Of a stretch of 64,000 nucleotides of DNA, positions 2,387-63,890 are shown piece after piece. The position numbers and the translations under genes are program-made. The stretch lies in assembly GCA_951406725.2 (NCBI GenBank), contig OX597836.1, positions 44,144,001 to 44,208,000 of the forward strand. The letters run 5' to 3'. The notes under the pieces are model-generated. The model made no database searches. It saw only the letters and a program-made list of their open reading frames with translations, and was not told the DNA's origin. Source of the DNA: Octopus vulgaris (lineage: Eukaryota). Within the stretch, counting starts at the first letter, position 1; each line of letters starts with the position of its first letter.

Positions 2387-2749
2387 CAGGCACAAGGCCC
2401 AAAATTTTGGGTGAGGGGACCAGTCAAGTAGATCGACCCCAGTACGCAACTGGTACTTAATTTATCGACCCCGAAAGGATGAAAGGCAAAGCCGACCTCG
2501 ACGGAATTTGAACTCAGAGCGTAGCGGCAGACGAAATACTTATTTTTTTACTACACACAAGGAGCTAAACACAGAGAGGACAAACGAGGACAGACAAACG
2601 GATTAAGTCGATTATATCGACCCCAGTGCGTAACTGGTACTTTATGTATCGACCCCCGAAAGGATGAAAGGCAAAGTCGACCTAGGCGGAATTTGAACTC
2701 AGAACGTAGCAGCAGACGAAATACCGCTAAGCATTTCGCCCGGCGTGCC
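2387..2749 (-). mobile_element. Chimeric SINE B dimer: head + B1 unit + B2 unit
   Basis: Two B bodies joined near 2541 (gaaatact|tattt); the left unit has the B2 tail and the right unit has the B1 tail. Confidence 0.85.
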
Positions 2750-2992
2750 AAAATGCAGCCAAAACGCAGCGCACGTCAGACACCGCTGGCTATAAATGGG
2801 TTAAAGAAACACAAGAATCACGATAAAAAACACTGAGAATGATGTAGACTCATTGCTTGTAGTGAATTTTGCGTCGCAGCATGGTGTCGTCAAAGCATGC
2901 AGAACAAATTTGACCCTGATCAAAGTGGGCCAAAGGTGTGTCAAAATGTACTGCCAGTTCTAATGGTCCCCGGAAGTCAAGGAACCATATAA

Positions 2993-6139: not shown

Positions 6140-6551
6140 AATATCTTTCGTGTGCTTGTCATTTCTGCTTTTGGTCATTCTTCAATCATAATAATCATGA
6201 TATATGGCTTAGGCATACAACTGCGCACTTCTCAGGTGAAGTGCAGTTGTTTAATTAACCCCTGCACTTCATCGTTTCGAAAACAATAAAAAAAACTGCC
6301 GCGAGAATTCTCCATTAAGAACGTTGGAATAACTGTGTAAATAATACCGTAATTCATTTTGATATTATTGCCTAATATGAGTTGCTGGTATTAAATGATT
6401 AATATCAGTGATTTATTTTTTCATGGTATAAATTATATATTGCTTGCAGTGACACTAATCATCGATTACCACCACAGCCAGACAAACAAAGCGAAAACAA
6501 TTCAACATCAAATTTATTTTAACGAAAACAAAATATGCGCTTGCACAAACC

Positions 6552-7334
6552 TATTTCTTTACTACCCACAAGGGGATAAACACAGGGAGGACAAACAAGG
6601 ACATACAAAAGGATTAAGTCGATTATATTGATCCCAGTGCGTAACTGGTACTTAATTTATCGACCCCGAAAGGATGAAAGGCAAAGTCAACCTCGGCGGA
6701 ATTTGAACTCAGAACGTAAAGACAGACGAAATGCCTATTTCTTTACTACCCACAAGGGGCTAAACACAGAGAAGACAAACACGCACATACAAAAGGATTA
6801 AGTCGACTATATCGACCCCAGTGCGTAACTGGTACTTAATTTATCGACCCCGAAAGGATGAAAAGCAAAGTCAACCTCGCCGGAATTTGAACTCAGAACG
6901 TAGCGGCAGACGAAATGCCTATTTCTTTACTACCCACGAGGGGCTAAACGCAGAGAGGACAAACAAGGACAGACAAAGGGATTAAGTCGATTACATCGAC
7001 CCCAGTGCATAACTGGTACTTATTTAATCGACCCCGAAAGTACGAAAGGCAAAGTCAACCTCGGCGGAATTTGAGCTTAGAACGTAGCGGCAGACGAAAT
7101 ACCTATTTCTTTACTACCCACAAGGGGCTAAACACAGAGAGGACAAACAAGGACAGACAAACGGATTAAGTCGATTATATCGACCCCAGTGCATAACTGG
7201 TACTTATTTAATCGACCCCGAAAGGATGAAAGGCAAAGTCAACCTCGGCGGAATTTGAACTCAGAACGTAGCGGCAGACGAAATACCGCTAAGCATCTCG
7301 CCCGGCGTGCTAACGATTCTGCCAGATCACCGCC
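6552..7334 (-). mobile_element. SINE B1 array: one head + four 184-bp units
   Basis: Unit boundaries at 6552, 6736, 6920, 7104; flanked by TSD tgcgc(t/a)tgcacaaacc (6536-6551, 7339-7354). Confidence 0.92.
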
Positions 7335-7408
7335 TCTTTGCGCATGCACAAACCGTTTCATTCGGCTGATGATTAAAGTGGGAAATGAAATATGTGGATT
7401 CAATGCTA

Positions 7409-10050: not shown

Positions 10051-10729
10051 AGACATGCTCTGTTCGTTGCAGAAACTGCAGGGGCTACTTAAAGATGTTA
10101 CAAACTCTTCTGATCACGACTAAAGCCATTGCGATGTTGGAAACATTATTCAACCTTCAACTGTTCCAGGACATCTTCTGGGGCAACGCCTTAACCAATT
10201 TGTCTGCTGGGACCACGAAGTGGTCTGAATTATAGGAAATTCTATGTTCTACTCCTCAATGTAGAGTTATCCGAAATAATTGTTCTGATCATCAGACAGT
10301 ACAATTAAATACTTGAAAGCTTATCATGACACAATCAGCAGGTATCTCCGGATCACAAGCGTTTCGAACCCAATTCTATATGCTTTGCTTGAGTGTGGCA
10401 ATGAGTACTGAATTATCTTTCGTCTATAGAAGGGTTTCATATCCTACCTTTTGTTATTCACAACACTTGGTGTTTGACACGGCCACCACGTCTTTCTTAA
10501 ATTCCTCGTATTCCAAAGAAATCTTCAGAAAACTGAACTTGCTAAAGAATTACTGTAGCCATCTTCATTAGGGAATGTAGATCCGAGTCATTTTTTGAAA
10601 ATAGCCTGGTCAACAAAGGCCTAATAATTTTCATTTGGTGAGAAATGTCAAGTGAAGGCTCCCAGAGGGCTGGTATTAACTTGTTAATGTCGTGTTCATA
10701 ACTTCTCAAACACCTATACTTTCTTTCTC

Positions 10730-10855
10730 GGCGGCGAGCTGGCAGAAATGTTAGCACGCCGGGCGAAATGCGTTACGTTCTGAGTTCAAATTCCGCCGAG
10801 GTCAACTTTGCCTTTCGTCCTTTCGGGGTCGATAAATTAAGTACCAGTTACGCAC
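10730..10855 (+). mobile_element. SINE B, truncated
   Basis: ggcggcgagctggcagaaatgttagcacgcc head and central domain. Confidence 0.8.
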
Positions 10856-11001
10856 AGGAGGAAAGACGACTTTCCCTAGTCAGTACTCCGGAGTTCCTTC
10901 CAGAGCAGTTGTCACTTGATTGCCTGATGCAACTTTTATCCCCTGTCCTTGGCAAGCAAGTCCTACCGCTTTAACACGGCGATCTTTCTCTGTTGCGAAA
11001 G

Positions 11002-11217
11002 GGCAGCGAGCCGGCAGAGGCGTTAGCACGCCGGACGAAATGCTGATCGGTATTTTGTCTGCCGCTACGTTCTGAGTTCAAATTCTGCCTTTCATCCTTT
11101 CGGGGTCGATTAAATAAGTACCAGCTACACACTGGGGTCGATGTAATCGACTTAATCCGTTTGTCTGTCCTGGTTTGTCCCCTCTATGTTTAGCCCCTTG
11201 TGAGTAGTAAAGAAACA
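11002..11217 (+). mobile_element. SINE B1 monomer with TSD
   Basis: TSD gatctttctctgttg at 10981-10995 and 11218-11232; inserted in the Hero-like fossil. Confidence 0.9.
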
Positions 11218-12810
11218 GATCTTTCTCTGTTGAATTTTAGATCCTCTGTGCTGAAATCTATCTCTTGCCCCTGGCATTGACATTGCTTCACCTTTTGGTG
11301 CTGAGTTGCCAAGTCGAAGGTGATTTTGTCAAGCTATCGTAACAATCATCTGTTGCTTCCCGTACATTTTAGCTTCTTTATAGCTTCCTGGGGCTTCCAC
11401 TTCCTGCCGCCCTCTATCGCCTTGACGCTCATCTTCAGATTGTAGCAATGTACTGACTACTCTTACCTTTGTGACTTTGAATTGTTCCCCCTACGACGGA
11501 ATTACTAAACAGAGCCTGGAGGTTTTGCTGCACAAATGGACTGATTTGAAAGATGTAGGAACACCCAGCCATCTTCACACGAACTGACTGTACAATTCAA
11601 CTTCTTCGTTGCCTCCACCTGACCCTGGGTCAGTCATAAAGGAAGGATGGACACTGCAGTTTGAGTATAATGCCGTTTAGTTAACTTTAGTTATGTCATA
11701 GTGTCTTTGACATTGCTGCTTTCCTTCAGGATGCTATCATAATTCTTCCTAAGGCATCAGATTATTTTCTCCTGAATTGTTAGAATCTCAGACCATTGAA
11801 CACTAAAGATGCTTGTCAGCTTTCCTTTGAGGAAAGTTCCAGAATTTTCTTGGGTTAAATTTCATGTAGATCCCTTTTCCAGTAAGTTCAGATTCCTCTT
11901 AGACTAATGGTGTTATAACTGTTATATCATCCATGAACGCCATACAGACTTTGTATGGCCATTAGTTTCTGGTCCTTAGACTGCTTTTCCTCCCATTTCT
12001 TGTAGTAGGATCTTGGCAGCCAGAAACAGGACCAGATATTATGCACTCTGTCATAATGCCTTTTGTAAGTCTCTGTCATGTGGTTGTGAAATTTCTTTCT
12101 TGAACCTCATCTGTGAATCCTTGAACAACATCATGAACTTGACTACTGCCATTGGTACTTAATAGTACTCTGAAGTCCTTGGTATTAGTTGGTAGGGCAC
12201 ATGTGGTTATTATTTGTCAAAATCTAACTATACTAGTGAGAGCATGATTCTGTTCTTTGTTTCCTTAATATTTTGGTTGATTGTTGATGTATGTTTAACG
12301 CATTCAGAGTATCGTGTGACTTCTCCTTTTTGGATACTCATGTCAATGTACTCATTGGAAAGCAAATATGCTGTCAATCTTTTGCTAATAAAGGACCAAA
12401 AGATTCCTTTGATATCTAACAGAGAAATGTCTCGAAAGTGGTCAAGTCTTGCTGAGTTATTTTCTCCCATACCAAAACATCCATTCTCAAATATTCAGAG
12501 CTTATTCCTGTGTTTTCTCCTAGATTGCCAGCTTTATTAGTCTCCTCAGTAGCAGTGGGAAGTTTTTGTGGATCTTATATATGATATTAGATGGTCCTGG
12601 AGCAGTGCATATCCAAGCTGTTACTTCATTGAGAGTGAGGTCTGTCATATTGAAAGGGACATGTGACATTAACAACTAGAAAGGACAGTCTGCTTGTGGA
12701 ATGTCTTTCTAGGGGTCACAATGTACCGCTGCCCCTGTTCCTTAAAATGTATCAGCTTCCTTCTTTTCGGTCTTCCAACGAGATCAGTTAGTAAACAGAA
12801 GTATTTTTAA

Positions 12811-15504: not shown

Positions 15505-15817
15505 TATTTCTTTACTACCCACAAGGGGCTAAACACAGAGGGGACAAACAAGGACAGACAAACGGATTAAGTCGATTATATCGACCCCAGTGCGTAACTG
15601 GTACTTATTTAATCGACCCCGAAAGGATGAAAGGCAAAGTCAACCTCGGCGGAATTTGAACTCAGAACGTAACGTCAGACGAAATACCTATTTCTTTACT
15701 ACCCAAAAGGGGCTAAACACAGAGGGGACAAACAAGGCCAGATTTAATAGGTATTAAGTCGATTACATCGGCTACGCATTTCACTCGGCGTGCTAACGTT
15801 TCTGTCAGCTCACCGCC
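15505..15817 (-). mobile_element. SINE B1 dimer, one unit internally deleted
   Basis: Junction at 15689; TSD ttaaaaatc(a/c)cttatacc. Confidence 0.88.
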
Positions 15818-15907
15818 TTAAAAATCCCTTATACCATGTTAGATGAAGAAACAGAGTTGAGAGATTTGGGTCGAATGCAGACATAGACTTGTTTATGAAT
15901 TAATGAT

Positions 15908-16650: not shown

Positions 16651-17175
16651 TTTATCTATTTATTTATTTATTTATTTTATATTACACAAAAACTAATAGA
16701 GAAAGATACGATAGAGACTCTTTCAACTAGGAAATTAATATTAAATATTCCGGTAAAACGAAAGTGTTACAAGGAGCTACAAAAATATATAACACTAAAT
16801 TTTTAAAATCTGGTTTTTCAAATTGTGAGTTAAATGACACTTGGAAACAAAAACAATAGCAAATATTACCACAAAGCCAGCAATCTCGGGGTGTGGTCAG
16901 TCGATTGCATCGACCCTTCTACTTAACTGGTGTTTATTTTATCGACCCCGAAAGGATAAGCGGTAAAGTTGACCTGTATACAGTTTGAACACAGAACGTG
17001 AAGATGGACAAAATGTCGCTAAGTGTTTCGCCTGGAGTGCTTAAGATTCTGCCAGTCCAGAGCTCCAAGCAAGGAGCTCAACAAAAATATCCATCCAAAA
17101 ATATTTACTGGAAAAAATTTACAGGCTTCCATTCACAAGAAACAGCTGATTGCCAAGCAACAACCGTTGTATACC

Positions 17176-17772
17176 TAATTCTTTACTACCCACAAGGGGC
17201 TAAACACAGAAAGGACAAACAAGGACAGACAAACGGATTAAGTCGATTATATCGACCCCAGTGCGTAACAGGTACTTATTTAATCGACCCGAAAGGATGA
17301 AAGGCAAAGTCGACCACGGCGGAATTTGAACTCAGAACGTAGCGGCAGACGAAATACCTATTTCTTTACTACCCACAGGGGGCTAAACATAGAGGGGACA
17401 AACAAGGCCAGACACAGGTATTAAGTCGATTACATCGACCCCAATGTGTAACTGGTACTCATTTAATCGACCCGAAAGGATGAAAGGCAAAGTCGACTTC
17501 GGCGGAATTTGAACTCAGAACGTAACGGCAGACGAAATACCTATTTCTTTACTACCCACAAGGGGCTAAACATAGAGAGGACAAACAAGGCCAGACATAG
17601 GTATTAAGTAGGTTACATCGATCCCAGTGCGTAACTAGTACTCATTTAATCGACCCCGAAAGGATGAAAGGCAAAGTCGACCTAGGCGGAATTTGAACTC
17701 AGAACGTAGCAGCAGACGAAATACTGCTAAGTATTTCGCCCGGCGTGCTAACGTTTCTGCCAGCTCGCCGCC
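17176..17772 (-). mobile_element. SINE B1 array: head + three 183-bp units
   Basis: Boundaries at 17176, 17359, 17542; TSD acaaccgttgtatac. Confidence 0.92.
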
Positions 17773-18219: not shown

Positions 18220-18685
18220 TGTCTGTCTGTATGTGTGTTTGTCCCTGCTACCTATTTCTATTTCTTTACTACCCACAGGGGGCTAAACACAGAGAGGACA
18301 AACAAGGACACACAAACGGAGTAAGTCGATTATATTGACCCCAGTGCGTAACTGGTACTTATTTAATCGACCCCGAAAGGATGAAAGGCAAAGTCGACCT
18401 CGACGGAATTTGAACTCAGAAGATAACCGCAGACGAAATACCACTAAGAATTTCACCCGGCGTGCTACCGTTTCTGCCAGCTCGCCTTGTCCCTGCTACC
18501 GCTTGACAACTCGCATTGATGTGTTTACGTCCCCGTAAACTAGCGGTTCGGCAAAAGTGAACGATAGAATAATAACCTGGTTTTAAAAAATAAGTACTGA
18601 GGTCGATTCATTTTCGACCAAAGATTCTTGAAAGCAGTGCTCCAGTATGGTCGCAGTCTAATGAGTGAAACGAGTAAAAGGTAAA
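17985..18685 (+). mobile_element. Older SINE family A copy interrupted by a B1 insertion
   Basis: A head at 17985-18140; A tail resumes after 18500. Confidence 0.8.
18253..18486 (-). mobile_element. SINE B1 monomer nested in SINE A
   Basis: Perfect 14-bp TSD ttgtccctgctacc (18239-18252, 18487-18500). Confidence 0.92.
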
Positions 18686-22514: not shown

Positions 22515-22735
22515 CATTTCTTTACTACCCACAAAGGGCTAAACACAGAAGGGACAAACAAGGACAGACAAATGGATTAAGTCGATTACATTGACCCCAG
22601 TGCGTAACTGGTACTTATTTAATCGACCCCAAAAGGATGAAAGGCAAAGTTGACCTCAGCGGAATTTGAACTCAGAACGTAACGGCAGACGAAATACAGA
22701 TAAGCATTTCGCCCGGCCTGCTAACGTTTCTGCAT
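22515..22735 (-). mobile_element. SINE B1 monomer
   Basis: TSD tagaatatattac on both sides. Confidence 0.85.
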
Positions 22736-34328: not shown

Positions 34329-34744
34329 TATTTCTATATTGCCCACAAGGGGCTAAACACAGAGGGGACAAACAAGGACAGGCAAACGGATTAAGTCGAT
34401 TACATCGACCCCAGTGCGTAACTAGTACTTAATTTATCGACCCCGAAGGGATGAAAGACAAAGTCAACCTCGGCGGAATTTGAACTCAGAACGTAAAGAC
34501 AGACGAAATACCTATTTCTTTACTACCCACAAGGGGCTAAACACAGAGGGGACAAACAAGGACAGGCAAACGGGATTAAGTCGATTACATCGACCCCAGT
34601 GCGTAACTAGTACTTAATTTATCGACCCCGAAGGGATGAAAGACAAAGTCGACCTCGGCGGAATTTGAACTCAGAACGTAAAGACAGACGAAATACTCCT
34701 AAGCATCTCGCCCGGCGTGCTAACGTTTCTACAAGCTCGCCGCC
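34329..34744 (-). mobile_element. SINE B1 array: head + two 184-bp units
   Basis: Junction gaaatacc|tatttc at 34513; TSD-like ccc(c/t)ggtatttttct. Confidence 0.9.
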
Positions 34745-35077
34745 TTCCCTGGTATTTTTCTATCCTCTTCAATAAAGCAGTGATGTTTTGGCCACTTAAA
34801 CAGCGATTTCTTTTTCGACTCCAACGCTATGAATTGGTGATCCAGCAGTATATTTTACCCAACTTCAGGCATTTTACACAACTTTTGAAAATAGTGCTGC
34901 AGCTTATTAATAAACATTGACTAGTGAAATCTTGCCGGTGCAGTTTCCTATTCAGAAATACAAGTAGGGGTTTTAAAGAAATCATCCAATTCTCTACAAA
35001 AACCCTTTGATCAACCATTGCACAATGCAATGTTGAGGGATAAGAAGTCTTCACACTTACAGCACAGGTAGAAGTTA

Positions 35078-44510: not shown

Positions 44511-45035
44511 TGCAGGAGTGGCTGTGTAGTGGGTGGCTTGCTTACCAACCACATGGTTCCGGGTTCAGTCCCACTGCGTGGCATCTTGGGCAAGTATCTT
44601 CTGCTATGGCCTCGGGCCGACCAATGCCTTGTGGGTGGATTGGTAGACGGAAACTGAAAGAAGCCTATCGTAAATATGTATATATATGTATATATGTATG
44701 TGTATGTATATGTTTGTGTGTCTGTGTTTGTCCCTCCAACATCGCTTGTCAACCGATGCTGGTGTGTTTACGTCCCCCGTAACATAGCGGTTCGGCAAAA
44801 GAGACCGATAGAATAAGTACTAGGCTTACAAAGAATAAGTCCTGGGGTCGATTTGCTCGACTAAAGGTGGTGCTCCAGCATGGCCACAGTCAAATGACTG
44901 AAACAAGTAAAAGAGACCGATAGAATAAGTACTAGGCTTACAAAGAATAATCCTGGGGTCGATTTGCTCGACTAAAGGTGGTGCTCCAGCATGGCCACAG
45001 TCAAATGACTGAAACAAGTAAAAGAGTAAAAGAGT
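44511..45035 (+). mobile_element. SINE family A with a duplicated 3' ~117 bp
   Basis: aaaagagaccgatagaataag...gaaacaagtaaaagag present twice. Confidence 0.9.
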
Positions 45036-49054: not shown

Positions 49055-49478
49055 TTCTTTCTTACTCTAGGCACACGGCCCGAAATTTTGGGGGAGGGGC
49101 ACCAGTCGATTAGATCAACCTCGGTACGCAAATGGTACTTAATTTATCGGCCCCGAAAGGATGAAAGGCAAAGTCGACCTCGGTAGAATTTGAACTCAGA
49201 ACGTAAAGACAGACGAAATACCGCTAAGCATTTCATATTCTTTTTATTGCCCGCAAGGGGCTAAACACAGAGGGGAAAAACAAGGACAGATAAACGGATT
49301 AAGTCGATTATATCGACACCAGTGCGTAACTGGTACTTATTTAATCGACCCCGAAAGGATGAAAGGCAAAGGCGACCTCGGCGGAATTTGAACTCAGAAC
49401 GTAGCGGCAGACGAAATACCTATTTCTTTACTACCCACAAGGGGCTAAACACAGAGGGGACAAGCAAGGACAGACAAA
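49055..49478 (-). mobile_element. Composite SINE B: partial B1 + B1 unit + B2 unit
   Basis: Canonical junction at ~49421; variant junction at ~49236 into a B2 copy. Confidence 0.82.
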
Positions 49479-50085: not shown

Positions 50086-50453
50086 ACACTTATAAAAAGT
50101 CTATCAACTACACTTACAATACCTGTATTAACTGTACTAACTACACTTAACAGTAAGATCTACACTTACAACAATTATATCAAATACACTTACAACAAAG
50201 GTCATCACAGCAGATCAACGCAAAGAAATAACAATGATAATTACTACAAATGAAATGAAATACATGTGGACGTTCAGCGTGCTAGAAACAGCAGCTAAAT
50301 TTCTCTCTTGTTATATCAAAAAATTACACGTGGTTCAGAATTACATGATGCATTGACTGAAAAAAAAAATACAGACAGTATGGTCCTGGTTGGAAGGTCT
50401 TCGATCCTAGTTCCGTCTTATGTACTTGGGATTAACAACGTTCCAACAATATC

Positions 50454-51601
50454 TATTTCTTTACTACGCACAAGGGGCTAAACACAGAGAGGACAAACAA
50501 GGATAGACAAACGGATTAAGTCGATTATATCGACCCCAGTGCGTAACTGGTACTTATTTAATCTACCCTGAAGGGATGAAAGGCAAAGTCAACCTCAGCA
50601 GAATTTGAACTCAGAACGTAAAGACAGGCAAAATACCTATTTCTTTACTATCGACACAGGGCTACACACAGAGGAGACAAACAAGGACAGACAAACGGAT
50701 TAAGTCGATTATATCGACCCCGGTGCGTAACTGGTACTTATTTAATCGACCCTGAAAGGATGAAAAGCAAAGTCAACCTCAGCAGAATTTGAACTCAGAA
50801 CGTAAAGACAGGCAAAATACCTATTTCTTTACTATCTACACGGGGCTACACACAGAGGAGACAAACAAGGACAGACAAACGGATTAAGTCGATTATATCG
50901 ACCCCAGTACGTAACTGGTACTTATTTAATCGACCCTGAAAGGATGAAAAGCAAAGTCAACCTCAGCAGAATTTGAACTCAGAACGTAAAGACAGGCAAA
51001 ATACCTACTTCTTTACTACCCACAAGGGGCTAAACACAGAGGAGACAAACAGGGACAGACAAACGGATTAAGTCGATTATATCGACCCCAGTGCGTAACT
51101 GGTACTTATTTAATCGACCCTGAAAGGATGAAAAGCAAAGTCAACCTCAGCAGAATTTGAACTCAGAACGTAAAGACAGGTAAAATACCTATTTCTTTAC
51201 TATCGACACGGGGCTACACACAGAGGAGACAAACAAGGACAGACAAACGGATTAAGTCGATTATATCGACCCCAGTGCGTAACTGGTACTTATTTAATCG
51301 ACCCTGAAAGGATGAAAAGCAAAGTCAACCTCAGCAGAATTTGAACTCAGAACGTAAAGACAGGCAAAATACCTACTTTCTTTACTACCCACAAGGGGCT
51401 AAACACAGAGGAGACAAACAGGGACAGACAAACGGATTAAGTCGATTATATCAACCCCAGTGCGTAACTGGGACTTATTTAATCGACCCCGAAAGGATGA
51501 AAGGCAAAGTCGACCTCGGCGGAATTTGAACTCAGAACGTAACGGCAGACGAAATACGGCTACGCATTTCGCCCGGCGTGCTAACGTTTCTGCCAGCTCG
51601 C
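50454..51601 (-). mobile_element. SINE B1 array: head + six 184-bp units
   Basis: Boundaries at 50454, 50638, 50822, 51006, 51190, 51374. Confidence 0.93.
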
Positions 51602-52049
51602 AGCGCTAGTAATATTTACATAGATGGCCATAGTTGGAATAACTTCGATTATGGATTTGTCCGGTTATGGCCGACATAGGTTAAACATCATCATCAATAA
51701 CAATAACAACAATAGCACCAGCAATAGTGGCAACAACAGCAAAAATAATGATGCTACCATTTAAAGAATATAGATATTTCTTAACTCGAAAAATTCTTTC
51801 GTATGATAAAGAAACGAGATGGACGAACTTACCTGGTTCCCTGGAATGATTTATCACAACAGTAAAATCATCGCTTAACTATACGTCTACGTGTGTGTAT
51901 GTCCGTGTGTGTGTATGAGTATGTGTGTGTGTATGTATGTGTGTGTGCGTGTGTGTGTAACTATGTGTAGGTGTGTGGGTGTGAGTAATATACAGTGTGT
52001 AGTTTGTTGATATCAAATCAGAAAAATCAATACGTGTTAAAAACTTATA

Positions 52050-52630: not shown

Positions 52631-53009
52631 GTTTTGTGAATGTTGATTAATAGTTCTGTGAATATGTGTTCGTTTGTAGTAACGACAGGTGTGGTGGTCG
52701 TGGTGGTGGTGATGGAGGTGGTGCTGGTGGTGTTGTTATTGCTGGTGGTGGTGGTGGTGGTGGTGGCGGTGGTGGCAAATGGTAGTTAGTGCTGATGGTG
52801 GTGACTGCGGCGGCGGTGATTGTCAAGATGGTAGCAACGATTCCTTAAACAGTGTTCTCCGTGGTAATGTGAAACAGTCGTTATTCAATTGTAACAATGG
52901 TGATAGTAGTAACGGCCACGATGGCGGTGGTAGTGGTGGTGCTGGTGGTAGTGGAGGTGGTGGTGGTAGTGGAGGTGCTGGTGGTAGTGGTGCTGGTGCT
53001 GGTGGTGCT

Positions 53010-53820
53010 GGTGGTGGAGACGGTGGTGGTGATGATGGTGGCGATAGCGGAGGTGGTGTCTTTGAGGACAGCGAGATGGTTGCGGTGGTAGTGGTGGCGC
53101 TGGTGGTAGTGGTGGTGGGGATAGCGATGGTGGTGGTGGTGGCGATGGTGGTGGTGATGGTGGTGGCGATAGCGGAGGTGGTGTCTTTGAGGACAGCGAG
53201 ATGGTTGCGGTGGTAGTGGTGGCGCTTGTGGTAGTGGTGGTGGGGATAGTGGAGGTGGTGGTGGTGGTGGTGGAGACGGTGGTGGCGATAGCGGAGGTGG
53301 TGTCTTTAAGGACAGCGAGATGGTTGCGGTGGTAGTGGTGGCGCTGGTGGTAGTGGTGGTGGGGATAGTGGAGGTGGTGGTGGTGGTGGTGGTGGTGGAG
53401 ACGGTGGTGGCGATAGCGGAGGTGGTGTCTTTAAGGACAGCGAGATGGTTGCGGTGGTAGTGGTGGCGCTGGTGGTAGTGGTGGTGGGGATAGTGGAGGT
53501 GGTGGTGGTGGTGGTGGAGACGGTGGTGGCGATAGCGGAGGTGGTGTCTTTAAGGACAGCGAGATGGTTGCGGTGGTAGTGGTGGCGCTGGTGGTAGTGG
53601 TGGTGGGGATAGTGGAGGTGCTGGTGGTGGTGGTGGAGACGGTGGTGGCGATAGCGGAGGTGGTGTCTTTGAGGACAGCGAGATGGTTGCGGTGGTAGTG
53701 GTGGCGCTGGTGGTAGTGGTGGTGGGGATAGTGGAGGTGCTGGTGGTGGTGGTGGTGGAAACGGTGGTGGCGATAGCGGAGGTGGTGTCTTTGAAGACAG
53801 CGAGAGGGTTGCGGTGGTAG
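53010..53820. repeat. ~120-bp higher-order (GGT)-based tandem repeat, about 7 units
   Basis: Recurrent marker gatagcggaggtggtgtcttt(g/a)aggacagcgagatggttgcgg. Confidence 0.9.
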
Positions 53821-54754
53821 TAGAGAGACAACGTCGTTAGGGGGTGTGGCAGTGGGTGGGAGGTGGGGGTGGTTGTACGAGGATTGTGGTGGTGGTGTCG
53901 GAGGCGGTGGTGGAAGAAACGGATCACATGATGATGGTAATGATGATGGTTGCGCTGATGGCAGCGGCGGTGGTGGTGGTGATGGTGGTGTGGGAGATAA
54001 CGGTGATGTGATGACGGAGGGTGGAGGCGGTGGTCATAGCTGTAGTAGTGAAGCTGATGGGCATGCAGATGATGCTGGTGGCGGTGGTGGTTGTGGTGGT
54101 AGTGGTGGTGGTTGGGGTGGTAGTAGTGGAGGTTGTTGTGGTGGTGATAGTTGTAGTAGTGTAGCCGATGGTGATGAAGATGATGCTAGTGGTTGTGGTG
54201 GTAGTGGTGGTGGTGGTGGTGGTGGTGGTGGTGGTGGTGGTAGTTGTGGTGGTGGTGATTGCGGTGGTAGTGGTGATGGTGGTGGTGGTAGTGGTGGTGG
54301 TGGACGTGGTGGTGGTGGTGGTGGTGGTGGTGGTGGCGGTGCTAGTGGTGCTGGTGCTGGTGGTGGTGGTGGTGGTAGTGGTGGTGGTGGTGGCGGTGAT
54401 AGTTGTAGTAGCATAAGCCGATGGTGATGAAGATGATGCTGGTGGTGGTGATGATAATGGTGGGGGTACTGGTGTTGTGGGAGGTAATGGATGTAATGAT
54501 GGTGATGGATGTGGTGGCCATAGTTGGAATAGTGTAACCGATGGTGATGAAGATGATGCTGGTGGTGGTGGTGGTGGTGGTGGTGGTGGTGGTGGTGGTA
54601 GTGGTTGCGGTGGTAGTTTCTTAGATTTCTTATTTGTGCAAGTAGCTGTATATTTGCATTCTTGCGGTTGTTATTGTTGTTACTAATTAGCCCTTGGTAA
54701 GTATTGACTAAGGAGACCCATGCTGAAAGGCATTCCTACCGTAACCACCCTGTT

Positions 54755-56289: not shown

Positions 56290-56780
56290 TTCCCCGTCCC
56301 ATCACTGCTTGACCACCGGTGTTGGTGTGCTTACATCCCCGTGAATATGTGCGCGTTGTTGCGCGCGCGTGTGTGTATGCGTGTGTGTGTTTGTGTGTGT
56401 GTGTATGCGTGTGTGTGTGTTTGTGTGTGTGTGTGCGTGTGTGTGTTTGTGTGTGTGTGTATGTGCATAGGTGTATTATGTGTGTATATGTTTATGTGTG
56501 TGCGTGTGTGTGTGTGTGTTGTATGCGCGCGTGTGACTATATGTATGTGTGTTTGTATGTGTGTGTTTGTGTGTGTGTGTGTGTGCGTGTGTGTGTCTCT
56601 ATGCTAATTCTGTAATTGTAAAATGAGTTTGTAGTCGTTGTTTTAGCCCCAGGTCAGCTCTCATTGAGCAAACCTATGATCAAAGGTATTCCAGCCTTGA
56701 CCATCACGTTATTTCTGTTATCCCTACAACTACATTAGTCAATGCAACTTTATTTAAGACGGTGGTTGTACGATTCGAAT

Positions 56781-58143
56781 GAAATTTGGCTGCTATTTCC
56801 AGCGAGGAGATCGACCATCTAGGCTTTCCCGCTGTATGATCACAGAAAATCCATGCATGACCATCCCAACATTTCACGGGTATAATATACCCCAGTTTGT
56901 ACTACCCGATGTCCTCTATTTTTCAAGACATTAAGATATAGTTTGAAGGAAATTTGGCTGCTATTTCCAGCGGGGAGATCGACCATCTAGGCTTTCCCGC
57001 TGTATGATCACAGAAAATCCATGCATGACCATCCCAACATTTCACGGGTATAATATACCCCAGTTTGTACTACCCGATGTCCTTTATTTTTCAAGACATT
57101 AAGATATAGTTTGAAGGAAATTTGGCTGCTATTTCCAGCGGGGAGATCGACCATCTAGGCTTTCCCGCTGTATGATGGTCATCCATGCATGACCATCCCA
57201 ACATTTCACGGGTATAATATACCCCAGTTTGTACTACCCGATGTCCTCTATTTTTCAAGACATTAAGATATCGTTTGAAGGAAATTTGGCTGCTATTTCC
57301 AGCGGGGAGATCGACCATCTAGGCTTTCCCGCTGTATGATCACAGAAAATCCATACATGACCATCCCAACATTTCACGGGTATAATATACCCCAGTTTAT
57401 ACTACCCGATGTCCTCTACTTTTCAAGACATTAAGATATAGTTTGAAGGAAATTTGGCTGCTATTTCCAGCGGGGAGATCGACCATCTAGGCTTTCCCGC
57501 TGTATGATCACAGAAAATCCATACATGACCATCCCAACATTTTACGGGTATAATATACCCCAGTTTATACTACCCGATGTCCTCTACTTTTCAAGACATT
57601 AAGATATAGTTTGAAGGAAATTTTGCTGCTATTTCCAGCGGGGAGATCGACCATCTAGGCTTTCCCGCTGTATGATCACAGAAAATCCATACATGACCAT
57701 CCCAACATTTCACGGGTATAATATACCCCAGTTTATACTACCCGATGTCCTCTACTTTTCAAGACATTAAGATATAGTTTGAAGGAAATTTGGATGCTAT
57801 TTCCAGCGGGGAGATCGACCATCTAGGCTTTCCCGCTGTATGATCACAGAAAATCCATACATGACCATCCCAACATTTCACGGGTATAATATACCCCAGT
57901 TTATACTACCCGATGTCCTCTACTTTTCAAGACATTAAGATATAGTTTGAAGGAAATTTGGCTGCTATTTCCAGCGGGGAGATCGACCATCTAGGCTTTC
58001 CCGCTGTATGATCACAGAAAATCCATACATGACCATCCCAACATTTTACGGGTATAATATACCCCAGTTTATACTACCCGATGTCCTCTACTTTTCAAGA
58101 CATTAAGATATAGTTTGAAGGAAATTTGGCTGCTATTTCCAGC
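56781..58143 (+). repeat. 168-bp satellite, 8 units, derived from dispersed family E
   Basis: gaaatttggctgctatttccagc at 56781, 56949, 57117, 57281, 57449, 57617, 57785, 57953, 58121. Confidence 0.95.
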
Positions 58144-58496: not shown

Positions 58497-59290
58497 GGCT
58501 GTGGTGATGTTGTTTGCAGTGGCGGTGGTGGTTGTGGTGGTGGTGGTGGTGATGTTGTTTGCAGTGGTGGCGATGATGGTGGTGATGGTGGTGATGTTTG
58601 TAGTGGTGGTGGTGGTGGCGGTGATGTTGTTTGCAGTGGTGGTGGTGGTGGTGGTGGTGATGTTGTGTTGGTGGTGATGGTGGCGATGATGGTGGTAATG
58701 ATGTGGTTTGCAGTGGTGATGATGGTGGTGGCGATGGTGGTGGTGGTGGTGGTGGTGATGTTTGTAGTGGTGGTGGCGGTGATGTTGTTTGCAGTGGTGG
58801 CGAGGGTGGTGGTGATGGTGGCGATGGTGGCGATGGTGGTGGTGATGGTGGCGGTGGTGGTTGTGGTGGTGATGTTGTTTGCAGTGGTGGCGATGGTGGT
58901 GGCGATGGTGGTGGTGGTGGTGGTGGTGATGTTTGTAGTGGTGGTGGCGGTGATGTTGTTTGCAGTGGTGGTGGTGGTGGTGGTGATGGTGGCGATGGTG
59001 GCGATGGTGGTGGTGATGGTGGCGGTGGTGGTTGTGGTGGTGATGTTGTTTGCAGTGGTGGCGAGGGTGGTGGTGATGGTGGCGATGGTGGCGATGGTGG
59101 TGGTGATGGTGGCGGTGGTGGTTGTGGTGGTGATGTTGTTTGCAGTGGTGGTGAGGGTGGTGGTGATGGTGGCGATGGTGGCGATGGTGGTGGTGATGGT
59201 GGCGGTGGTGGTTGTGGTGGTGATGTTGTTTGCAGTGGTGGCGAGGGTGGTGGTGATGGTGGCGATGGTGGCGATGGTGGTGGTGATTGT
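58497..59290. repeat. (GGT)-based tract with ~90-bp higher-order units
   Basis: Recurrent gatgttgtttgcagtggtgg marker. Confidence 0.9.
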
Positions 59291-59879
59291 AACTTTGTGG
59301 ACGCTAGTAGCAGCGGTGGTAGTGGTGGTGGTTTTGATGGTGGTTGTGCTGCTGCTGCTGCTGCTGGCTAATGGTGCGTGGTTGATGGCGGCGGCGCCGG
59401 AAGAGGCGATGCAGCCAGAGGCTATTTGTATTGGTTCCGCCAGTTGTTTAGCTCGATGTCATCCCAGATCGAACAGATCGATAATAATCAAAGTCGCTCC
59501 TGTCGTGCCCGTCGCATCATTTTAGGGTTATTTCAAGGACTTTATTATCCACTGTATCCTTTAACTCTTTCCTTTTTTTTAAATCGTAGAATATGATTTC
59601 AGAGAGATTTAGTTGTTATTTCTAGTAGGTCCAAACGACCACGCAAAGCCCACCACCGACAGCTTGGTTTTATTAATGTTGTTGTTGTTGTTGTCATGGT
59701 GGTGGTGGTGCTGGTGGTGCTGGTGCTGGTGCTGGTGGTGGTGGTGCTGGTACTGGTGGTGCTGGTGGTGCTGGTGCTGATGGTGGTGGTGGTGGTGGTG
59801 GTGGTGATCGTGGTGGTGGTGGTGGTGGTGGTGGAGGTGGTGGTGGTATGGTAAAAGTTTGTAACACTGATGATGAGAA

Positions 59880-62911: not shown

Positions 62912-63421
62912 CGTGTGTGTGCGTGTGTCTGTGTGTGTGCGTGTGTCTGTGTGTTTGCGTGTGTCTGTGTGTGTGTGCGTGTGTCTGTGTGTGTGCATGT
63001 GTGTCTGTGTGTGTTCGTGTGTCTGTGTGTGTGCGTGTGTCTGTGTGTGTGCGTGTGTCTCTGTGTGTGCGCGTGTCTGTGTGTGTGCGTGTGTCTGTGT
63101 GTGTGCGCGTGTGTCTGTGTGTGTGTGCGTGTGTCTGTGTGTGTGTGCGTGTGTCTGTGTGTGTGCGTGTGTCTGTGTGTGTGCGTGTGTCTGTGTGTGT
63201 GTGTGTGTGTCTGTGTGTGTGCGTGTGTCTGTGTGTGTGCGTGTGTCTGTGTGTGTGCGTGTGTCTGTGTGTGTGTGCGTGTGTCTGTGTGTGTGCGTGT
63301 GTGTGTGTGTGTGTGCGTGTGTCTGTGTGTGTGTGCGTGTGTCTCTGTGTGTTCGTGTGTCTGTGTGTGTGCGTGTGTTTGTGTGTGTGTACGTGTGTCT
63401 GTGTGTGTGCGTGTGTCTGTG

Positions 63422-63465
<44 letters not shown>

Positions 63466-63588
63466 TGTGTGTGTGCGTGTGTCTGTGTGTGTGCTTGTGT
63501 CTGTGTGTGTGCGTGTGTCTGTGTGTGTGCGTGTGTCTGTGTGTGTGCGTGTGTCTGTGTGTGTGCGTGTGTGTGTCTGTGTGTGTGT

Positions 63589-63622
<34 letters not shown>

Positions 63623-63790
63623 CTGTGTGTGTGCTTGTGTCTGTGTGTGTGCGTGTGTCTGTGTGTGTGCGTGTGTCTGTGTGTGTGCGCGTGTCTGTGT
63701 GTGTGCGTGTGTCTGTGTGTGTTCGTGTGTCTGTGTGTGTGCGTGTGTGTGTGTGTGTCTGTGTGTGTGCGTGTGTCTCTGTGTGTGCGT

Positions 63791-63833
<43 letters not shown>

Positions 63834-63890
63834 TGTGTGTGTGTGCGTGCGTGTGTGTGTCTGTGTGTGTGTGTGCGTGTGTATGTGTGA
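62912..63890. repeat. (TG)n-derived tract with an 18-20 bp period (gtgtgtgcgtgtgtctgt)
   Basis: Direct reading. Confidence 0.95.

Follow-up and report, generated by a model that had tools for sequence, protein, structure and literature searches.

How a dispersed retroposon comes to stand in tandem is the question raised by the 64,000-nucleotide stretch of Octopus vulgaris DNA analysed here (the window). At several places in it the head of a 231-bp SINE, B1, is followed by 184-bp units joined at one recurrent junction. The initial annotation had proposed that new B1 copies insert into old ones, the site being chosen by the endonuclease or by the priming step of a partner LINE. We followed these proposals in the window and through the genome (2.8 Gb, 227 contigs).

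As reference we used the B1 element at window positions 7334-7104 on the minus strand (231 nt), with a head at element positions 1-47 and a unit at 48-231. B1 is dispersed, present in high copy number and flanked by target-site duplications (TSDs), as SINEs are; exact TAG tails of the element number 75,951 in a genome-wide pattern count. The 184-bp 'body' starts between an A-box-like and a B-box-like motif and carries the 3' half of the tRNA-like region. Since later units restart at position 48, both motifs are found together in the first unit only. They were assigned by eye against the box consensus and are putative. ARAGORN predicted no tRNA genes, and Rfam gave no hits at E<=5. Folding of a script-made consensus predicted a hairpin at 31-60 with a 13-bp stem, site 48 lying at the 3' edge of its loop. 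The B1 consensus contains no T4 run, and a check for Pol III terminators found T4 at just 11 of 96 junctions. Head and core (1-166) are common to relatives with different tails, which we labelled A1-A3. B1 may resemble the MetaSINEs, which carry a 66-bp Meta domain after the head.

TRF detected arrays of 184 bp x4.0 (6549-7287), 183 bp x3.0 (17171-17724), 185 bp x2.0 (34329-34696) and 184 bp x6.0 (50448-51557) in the window, and BLAST placed the restart of every internal unit there at the identical base. The arrays and restart base listed in the initial annotation were confirmed, but the first unit at 15505 proved to be truncated and the chain at 49421 headless. The features are as follows.

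7288-7334, minus strand: head of the 6552 array, element positions 1-47; A-box-like motif at about 7324-7314; ends at the predicted hairpin loop
7104-7287, minus strand: unit 1, positions 48-231; contains a B-box-like motif (about 7262-7250), the shared core and a LINE-like tail that ends GTAGTAAAGAAATA
6920-7103, minus strand: unit 2; differs by 4.9% from unit 1 and by 11% from units 3 and 4
6736-6919, minus strand: unit 3; junction variant GGCATTTC
6552-6735, minus strand: unit 4, terminal
7339-7354, minus strand: 5' TSD copy of the 6552 array, 16 bp, starting GGTTTG
6536-6551, minus strand: 3' TSD copy of the 6552 array, one mismatch to the 5' copy
2422-2751, minus strand: B1 unit that runs at site 48/49 into the body of the different-tailed relative A1; absent from the initial list
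15505-15818, minus strand: head, 5'-truncated unit (element 153-231) and full unit; TSD starting GGTATAAG
17176-17772, minus strand: three-unit array, units 8-10% apart; 15-bp TSD starting GTATAC
34329-34745, minus strand: dimer of a TAG-tailed followed by a CAA-tailed unit, which differ by 2.4% and have 4 private variants in common; TSD starting AGAAAA
49104-49482, minus strand: headless chain of a truncated unit, a CAA-tailed unit and an A-family body joined via position 36
50454-51605, minus strand: six-unit array; units 2-5 differ from each other by 1.2-4.3%, and unit 1 differs from the others by 5-9%
10994-11220, plus strand: monomer; 15-bp TSD starting GATCTT
18258-18486, minus strand: monomer; TSD starting GGTAGC
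22516-22733, minus strand: monomer; TSD starting GTAATA

TSDs were visible by eye at 15505, 17176, 18258, 22516, 10994 and 34329; our TSD script recovered three of the eight terminal tails in the window. The proposal that a single TSD encloses an array was upheld at 6552 and at other arrays, but at 50453 no TSD was found.

Outside the window the same junction is abundant. The exact tail|GGTATTTCGTC junction occurs 29,407 times in the genome, and the reversed-pattern control gave 0 matches, so the head+(184 bp)n arrays with their recurrent junction are real and present at tens of thousands of places. We also analysed a random set of 120 position-picked 10-kb stretches (1.2 Mb; the planned sample was larger). 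In this set 33 of 263 BLAST pieces started exactly at position 48, and of the 74 loci with this tail, a few of which are LINE ends, 38 had at least two pieces. Chains held at most three pieces as joined (36/31/7), and the longest arrays seen were of six units in the window and seven at locus L194. Like SINE-derived satellites, the arrays consist of part-SINE tandem units with a longer terminal unit. Long homogenised arrays were absent from the random set, the window and L194. The arrays are short and not yet satellites; of the suggested route from SINE to satellite, tandem array formation with self-insertion stands, but array lengths reach only seven units.

Direct evidence for self-insertion came from loci where the resident head is still separate. 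A pattern of resident head, site and new head gave 45 hits (control 0); 30 of these loci, chosen by this exact pattern, were fetched, and 27 were distinct. At 21 of the 27 we found a resident head, a duplicated site, a full new copy and the resident body, the tail leading back to site 48 and about 13-16 bp being duplicated. Private, non-consensus bases were present in both TSD copies at seven loci. Three of the other loci end elsewhere and three are without a B1 tail. Nested residents were down to 71-74% identical. Loci L006 and L065, found without pattern selection, have the same form. B1 has inserted itself at site 48 of older copies, as the initial annotation had proposed, and of relatives. 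Nested forms are rare: in the random set two of 54 loci with a head were flagged, and one of the two is a partial duplication.

Related joins were seen elsewhere. Head-only tandem arrays of 64-66 bp with up to 9 copies (L253, L271, L273, L280) are the reciprocal product of nested insertion. A-family tails join internal sites at about positions 50 and 15 (L107:6909 and 7123, L143:4063, L021, L051:5359); these sites resemble the tails' own ends, and self-joining may be general to this group of SINEs. At L171, L172 and L178 B1 was inserted at a recurring site of an unrelated SINE, with TSDs in L172 and L178.

We then compared insertion targets. TSDs were detected at 52 of 173 terminal tails (LINE ends included) and at 6 of 860 shuffled pairs; most begin at the first base after the tail and are about 10-20 bp long. 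For TA-type tails the upstream, target-derived TSD copy started with GGTA in 5 of 10 cases in the random set and 5 of 6 in a second set. These 10 of 16 from unbiased sets compare with a background of 6,221 GGTA in 2.4 million positions (0.26%), which bears out the predicted GGTA bias at insertion sites. Loci L002-L030 gave 6 of 10 and were kept separate, because their query ended in GGTA. The presence of GGTA in the upstream copy rules out that it is merely part of the element's tail. The insertion sites also show a weak pyrimidine bias at -1.

The target depended on the tail. TSDs of CAA tails started with AGAA in 6 of 9 cases in the second set and 0 of 5 in the random set. Genome-wide, AGAA follows 1,159 of the 75,951 TAG tails; it follows CAA tails 8,186 times, to be set against 15,375 CAA tails in a filtered count. 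Hand-counting of the first 100 listed gave GGTA/AGAA ratios of 39/1 for TAG, under a filter that drops the commonest junction, and 12/28 for CAA (Fisher p 9e-11). AGAA matches a second internal site at position 15, which has its own junction class. TAG and TAA tails thus go with GGTA and site 48, CAA tails with AGAA and site 15, and both also with TATA. Of the 61 TA-type tails of the random set, 33 lead into site 48, 11 into a GG flank and 8 into a TA flank; the 21 CA-type tails include 2 joined to site 48, 2 to site 15 and 8 to an AG flank. A weight matrix built from 27 TSDs gave the 191 site-48 positions of the random set 1.7% of the target weight. The observed share is 33 of 61 tails, about 54%, so a short motif is insufficient to explain the use of site 48. 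Local duplication of units would inflate this share yet probably could not close a 30-fold gap in chains of two to three pieces.

A candidate for the partner LINE ends in L036, where 36 of 42 tail bases are common with B1, as in SINE-LINE pairs that share a 3' end. The family looks active: it has an intact ORF1 (600 aa) and an intact ORF2 (1149 aa), the latter in many identical-scoring copies. Its Pfam domains (Exo_endo_phos, RVT_1 and zf-RVT) give the L1-like layout of APE endonuclease, reverse transcriptase and zinc domain; the best PDB hit is human L1 ORF2p (E 9e-54), with concordant Atlas results. The LINE lies in (TATC)n at 29 of 30 loci examined. TATCT follows 64 of 66 LINE ends, all 66 being at TATC-like sites, and 10 of 14 copies have a (TATC)n-type upstream flank, the other four alignments stopping inside LINE sequence. 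Such insertion into a microsatellite is typical of target-specific L1/Tx1 LINEs, and we provisionally label the LINE Tx1-like from its domain layout and target. Judged from the 42-nt tail, an L1/Tx1-type LINE is the likely partner of B1. A search for a LINE with the exact B1 tail gave 0 matches, a result that holds for this exact pattern only. The LINE and SINE do not share a target in the SINEU manner, as the LINE uses TATCT and the SINE GGTA or AGAA; only the TATA class resembles the former. The family is abundant, with copies 98-99% identical (e.g. L231:214-5909; loci L231-L250).

We favour pairing by the RNA 3' end, rather than an endonuclease preference, as what sets the target, because the SINE's target differs from that of the LINE and follows the SINE's own tail variant. 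Endonuclease preference would fail to explain both facts unless unseen LINE families exist. On balance we consider it fairly probable that B1 inserts at position 48 (GGTATTTC) of older copies and relatives through such pairing. An endonuclease preference for G(G/A)TA, one of the two options in the initial annotation, is not supported, given the (TATC)n target of the LINE, the shift of target with the tail and the poor coverage of site 48 by the motif. The other option, the priming step, fits better, and RNA 3'-end pairing is the form that we would give it.

In this mechanism the B1 RNA would run a few bases past its tail into site-48 sequence and pair with nicked DNA, with enzymes likely borrowed from the L1/Tx1-type LINE. 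Source copies would adjoin a remnant of site 48 (or of site 15, or of a TA repeat), so that the target is part of the RNA 3' end, and the preference would pass to daughter copies in a self-reinforcing loop. Longer pairing at SINE sites may account for the roughly 30-fold excess over the short motif, to which the 31-60 hairpin or open Pol III chromatin perhaps contributes. The cDNA end would anneal to or replace the resident head, leaving head+(unit)n inside the oldest TSD; alternatively, the nested product might collapse to the same form by recombination between its two 62-bp heads. Unequal exchange could later add or remove units. With a little less than even confidence we propose a wider reading, in which the SINE reprogrammes a microsatellite-targeting LINE through its own RNA 3' read-through and each lineage has a heritable, RNA-encoded target. 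Guides that match the head would colonise residents, take the promoter position and regenerate the guide, giving self-amplifying arrays at about half of the loci.

Most arrays are seamless, and their heads, like their positions 48-63, are for the most part of the new-copy type. In seamless arrays of a B1 unit and an A body, the head is largely B1-type, as are positions 61 and 63; position 61 is C in 21 of 22 arrays, while 15 of 22 last pieces have T. Such heads fit a cDNA that replaces the resident strand or a collapsed nested product, and they also fit template switching, in which reverse transcriptase starts on one SINE RNA and, on reaching position 48, switches to a B1 RNA at its 3' end. 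Position 48, at the loop edge of the predicted stem, might then be a point of RNA cleavage, comparable to a tRNA anticodon loop. That seamless arrays arise mainly in this way, with nested DNA insertions real but minor, seems to us unlikely, though besides the heads it agrees with the rarity of nested forms and with the outer TSDs of B1+A arrays, whose target type is that of the last piece. Template switching between SINEs has been proposed (PMC4824008). It would, however, require that old residents of only 78-83% identity be freshly copied and that the switch take place between RNAs whose tails differ. It also sits badly with the arrays at L119 and L146, which keep resident-like heads, and with the truncated unit between head and body at 15505, and it leaves unexplained the GGTA TSDs in unique DNA and the nested TSDs with private variants.

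Further results bear on how the seamless joins form. Head divergence tracks neither unit. Resident-like head differences are in modest excess (p 0.026; 0.007 for positions 25-36), with no clean gradient. Residents at nested loci have diverged further than those in seamless arrays (p 0.02; small, hand-assembled sets), as joining that depends on homology predicts. The suggested homologous 5' joining of the cDNA to the resident head may operate; a minority of heads is resident-like, and most are of the new-copy type. Old and young events did not differ significantly in TSD decay (6/128 vs 7/333, p 0.20). Public contigs at orthologous sites break inside the SINE. At L025 in a more distant organism the head and old body are present and the middle is unbridged by contigs. 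Contig depth at this locus, again in a more distant organism, is far lower over the B1 tail relative to the core than in a close relative, a weak hint of a lineage-restricted B1 burst.

RNA 3'-end pairing has also to be weighed against separate LINE endonucleases, one GGTA-specific and one AGAA-specific, that mobilise the two tail variants. Tx1 LINEs often have a specific target, a specificity that SINEU takes over from them (PMC4494074), and 13 active L1-Tx1 families are reported in an octopus genome (PMC13282606); the pyrimidine bias at -1 points the same way. We nevertheless regard this version of endonuclease preference as quite improbable, given the TATC-like sites of every LINE-type end, the failure of the exact pattern to find a LINE with a B1-type tail, and the 1.7% of target weight that a short motif assigns to site 48.

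The mixed composition of the arrays allowed a further test of descent. A frequent form is a head, a B1 unit and an A body, so that units within one array come from different families. Downstream pieces include old and diverse residents, 78-94% identical to the reference, and last units with CAA tails show more divergence than first units (8 vs 3, p 0.013). A1 bodies were not significantly older than the preceding B1 unit (10 vs 6, p 0.13), which we count against our model. The A1 bodies of 17 dimers could not be told from 12 A1 monomers by divergence or pairwise distance, and no alignment column was diagnostic. Raw Mantel r was 0.43-0.47; after removal of locus effects the B1+A signal was gone (residual r -0.02), leaving no linkage between first and last pieces. 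On these results we reject one multimeric or dimeric master, the case that the initial annotation had named as fatal to self-targeting. Common dimer masters, as in a true dimeric SINE of the Alu kind, were likewise not found.

A further explanation would be multimeric source copies moved whole, with ordinary unequal recombination and self-insertion seeding only a few masters. Among 53 pairs of adjacent B1 units, 21 have distances no greater than the 5th percentile of those between arrays, and 18 have at least two private variants in common (2.4% between arrays). B1+B1 pairs keep a residual Mantel r of 0.15 (p 0.02), the paralogous loci L004 and L009 carry three and two units, and the consensus has no T4 run to stop read-through. 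Set against this, 32 of the 53 neighbours are not unusually alike, and B1+A pairs lack a shared lineage or diagnostic columns, with a last-last distance of 0.155 vs 0.064 for first-first. We think this explanation has little chance of being the main one. The same data show that longer arrays also grow by local duplication of units: at 50454 units 2-5 are local duplicates, while the units at 17176 are as distant as unrelated copies. At L103:4348-5646 we observed 121-bp tandem arrays derived from a diverged part of the SINE core (96-161), similar to SINE-derived satellites.

Chance or an assembly artefact is ruled out by the reversed-pattern control against the junction count, by the TSD shuffles and by differences of 1-11% between units.

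Comparison with known systems suggests that the arrays are a variant on known processes, with self-insertion observed directly, RNA-guided targeting likely and seamless joining through the resident head inferred. Crocodilian SINEU-3 is, like B1, a SINE moved by a Tx1-type LINE (Tx1-Mar) that inserts into another repeat and forms tandem insertions (PMC4494074). SINEU-3 shares its LINE's target and its tandem copies sandwich a TSD; B1 has targets other than those of the candidate LINE, they depend on the tail variant and are located within the SINE, and its joins are mostly seamless. In squamates, SINE-derived satellites (sSats) have tandem part-SINE units of about 184 bp with one longer terminal unit, as here, and are ascribed to unequal recombination, same-locus insertion being merely mentioned (PMC10702118). 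They reach up to 1000 units; the B1 arrays, unlike them, number tens of thousands of loci with 2-7 units each, use one junction, mix families and include nested TSD intermediates. About half of the copies of jerboa Dip/B1 are in multimers (cited in PMC10702118), as in octopus, but these are full-length head-to-tail copies and not head+(part)n. R2 elements form seamless 5' junctions by cDNA annealing over as little as 11 bp (PMC11331408). Their 'Anneal' junctions, which arise when the RNA carries upstream target sequence, and the alternative of end-joining parallel the seamless and nested B1 forms. R2 uses a sequence-specific, restriction-like endonuclease on rDNA, whereas B1 would use an APE-type LINE in trans on a SINE. 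The octopus OK, OR1 and OR2 SINEs and MetaSINEs (PMC4824008; compared by description) have, like B1, a tRNA-like head, a shared core and exchangeable LINE-derived tails. Such arrays are not described in the available parts of PMC13282606, PMC4824008 and PMC4758252, and full-text searches, which covered literature outside subscription papers, Repbase and SINEBase, gave no account of the arrays or of a tail-dependent self-targeting SINE.

If our reading is correct, B1 is a natural, very large-scale case in which the target of a trans-acting LINE enzyme seems to be set by the 3' end of its passenger RNA and not by the endonuclease: one candidate enzyme, with three classes of target that each go with a tail variant. 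This bears on the evolution of target specificity in non-LTR elements and on RNA-templated gene insertion. The nested, seamless and locally expanded forms are visible intermediates that bear on how tandem repeats are seeded by SINEs. In repeat libraries built for this genome, a single family will appear as many separate, chimeric consensus sequences.

The window also contains other tandem repeats. A 111-bp x2.1 tandem at 44797-45026 belongs to a third SINE with another tail, and a 168-bp x8.2 array with 97% matches at 56777-58143 is unrelated to B1. Long GGT-rich or GT-rich minisatellites with strong strand skew lie at 52922-54398, 58501-59291 and 62913-63889. At 10207-12431 one public contig of a second organism skips a 2.2-kb stretch, suggesting its absence there.
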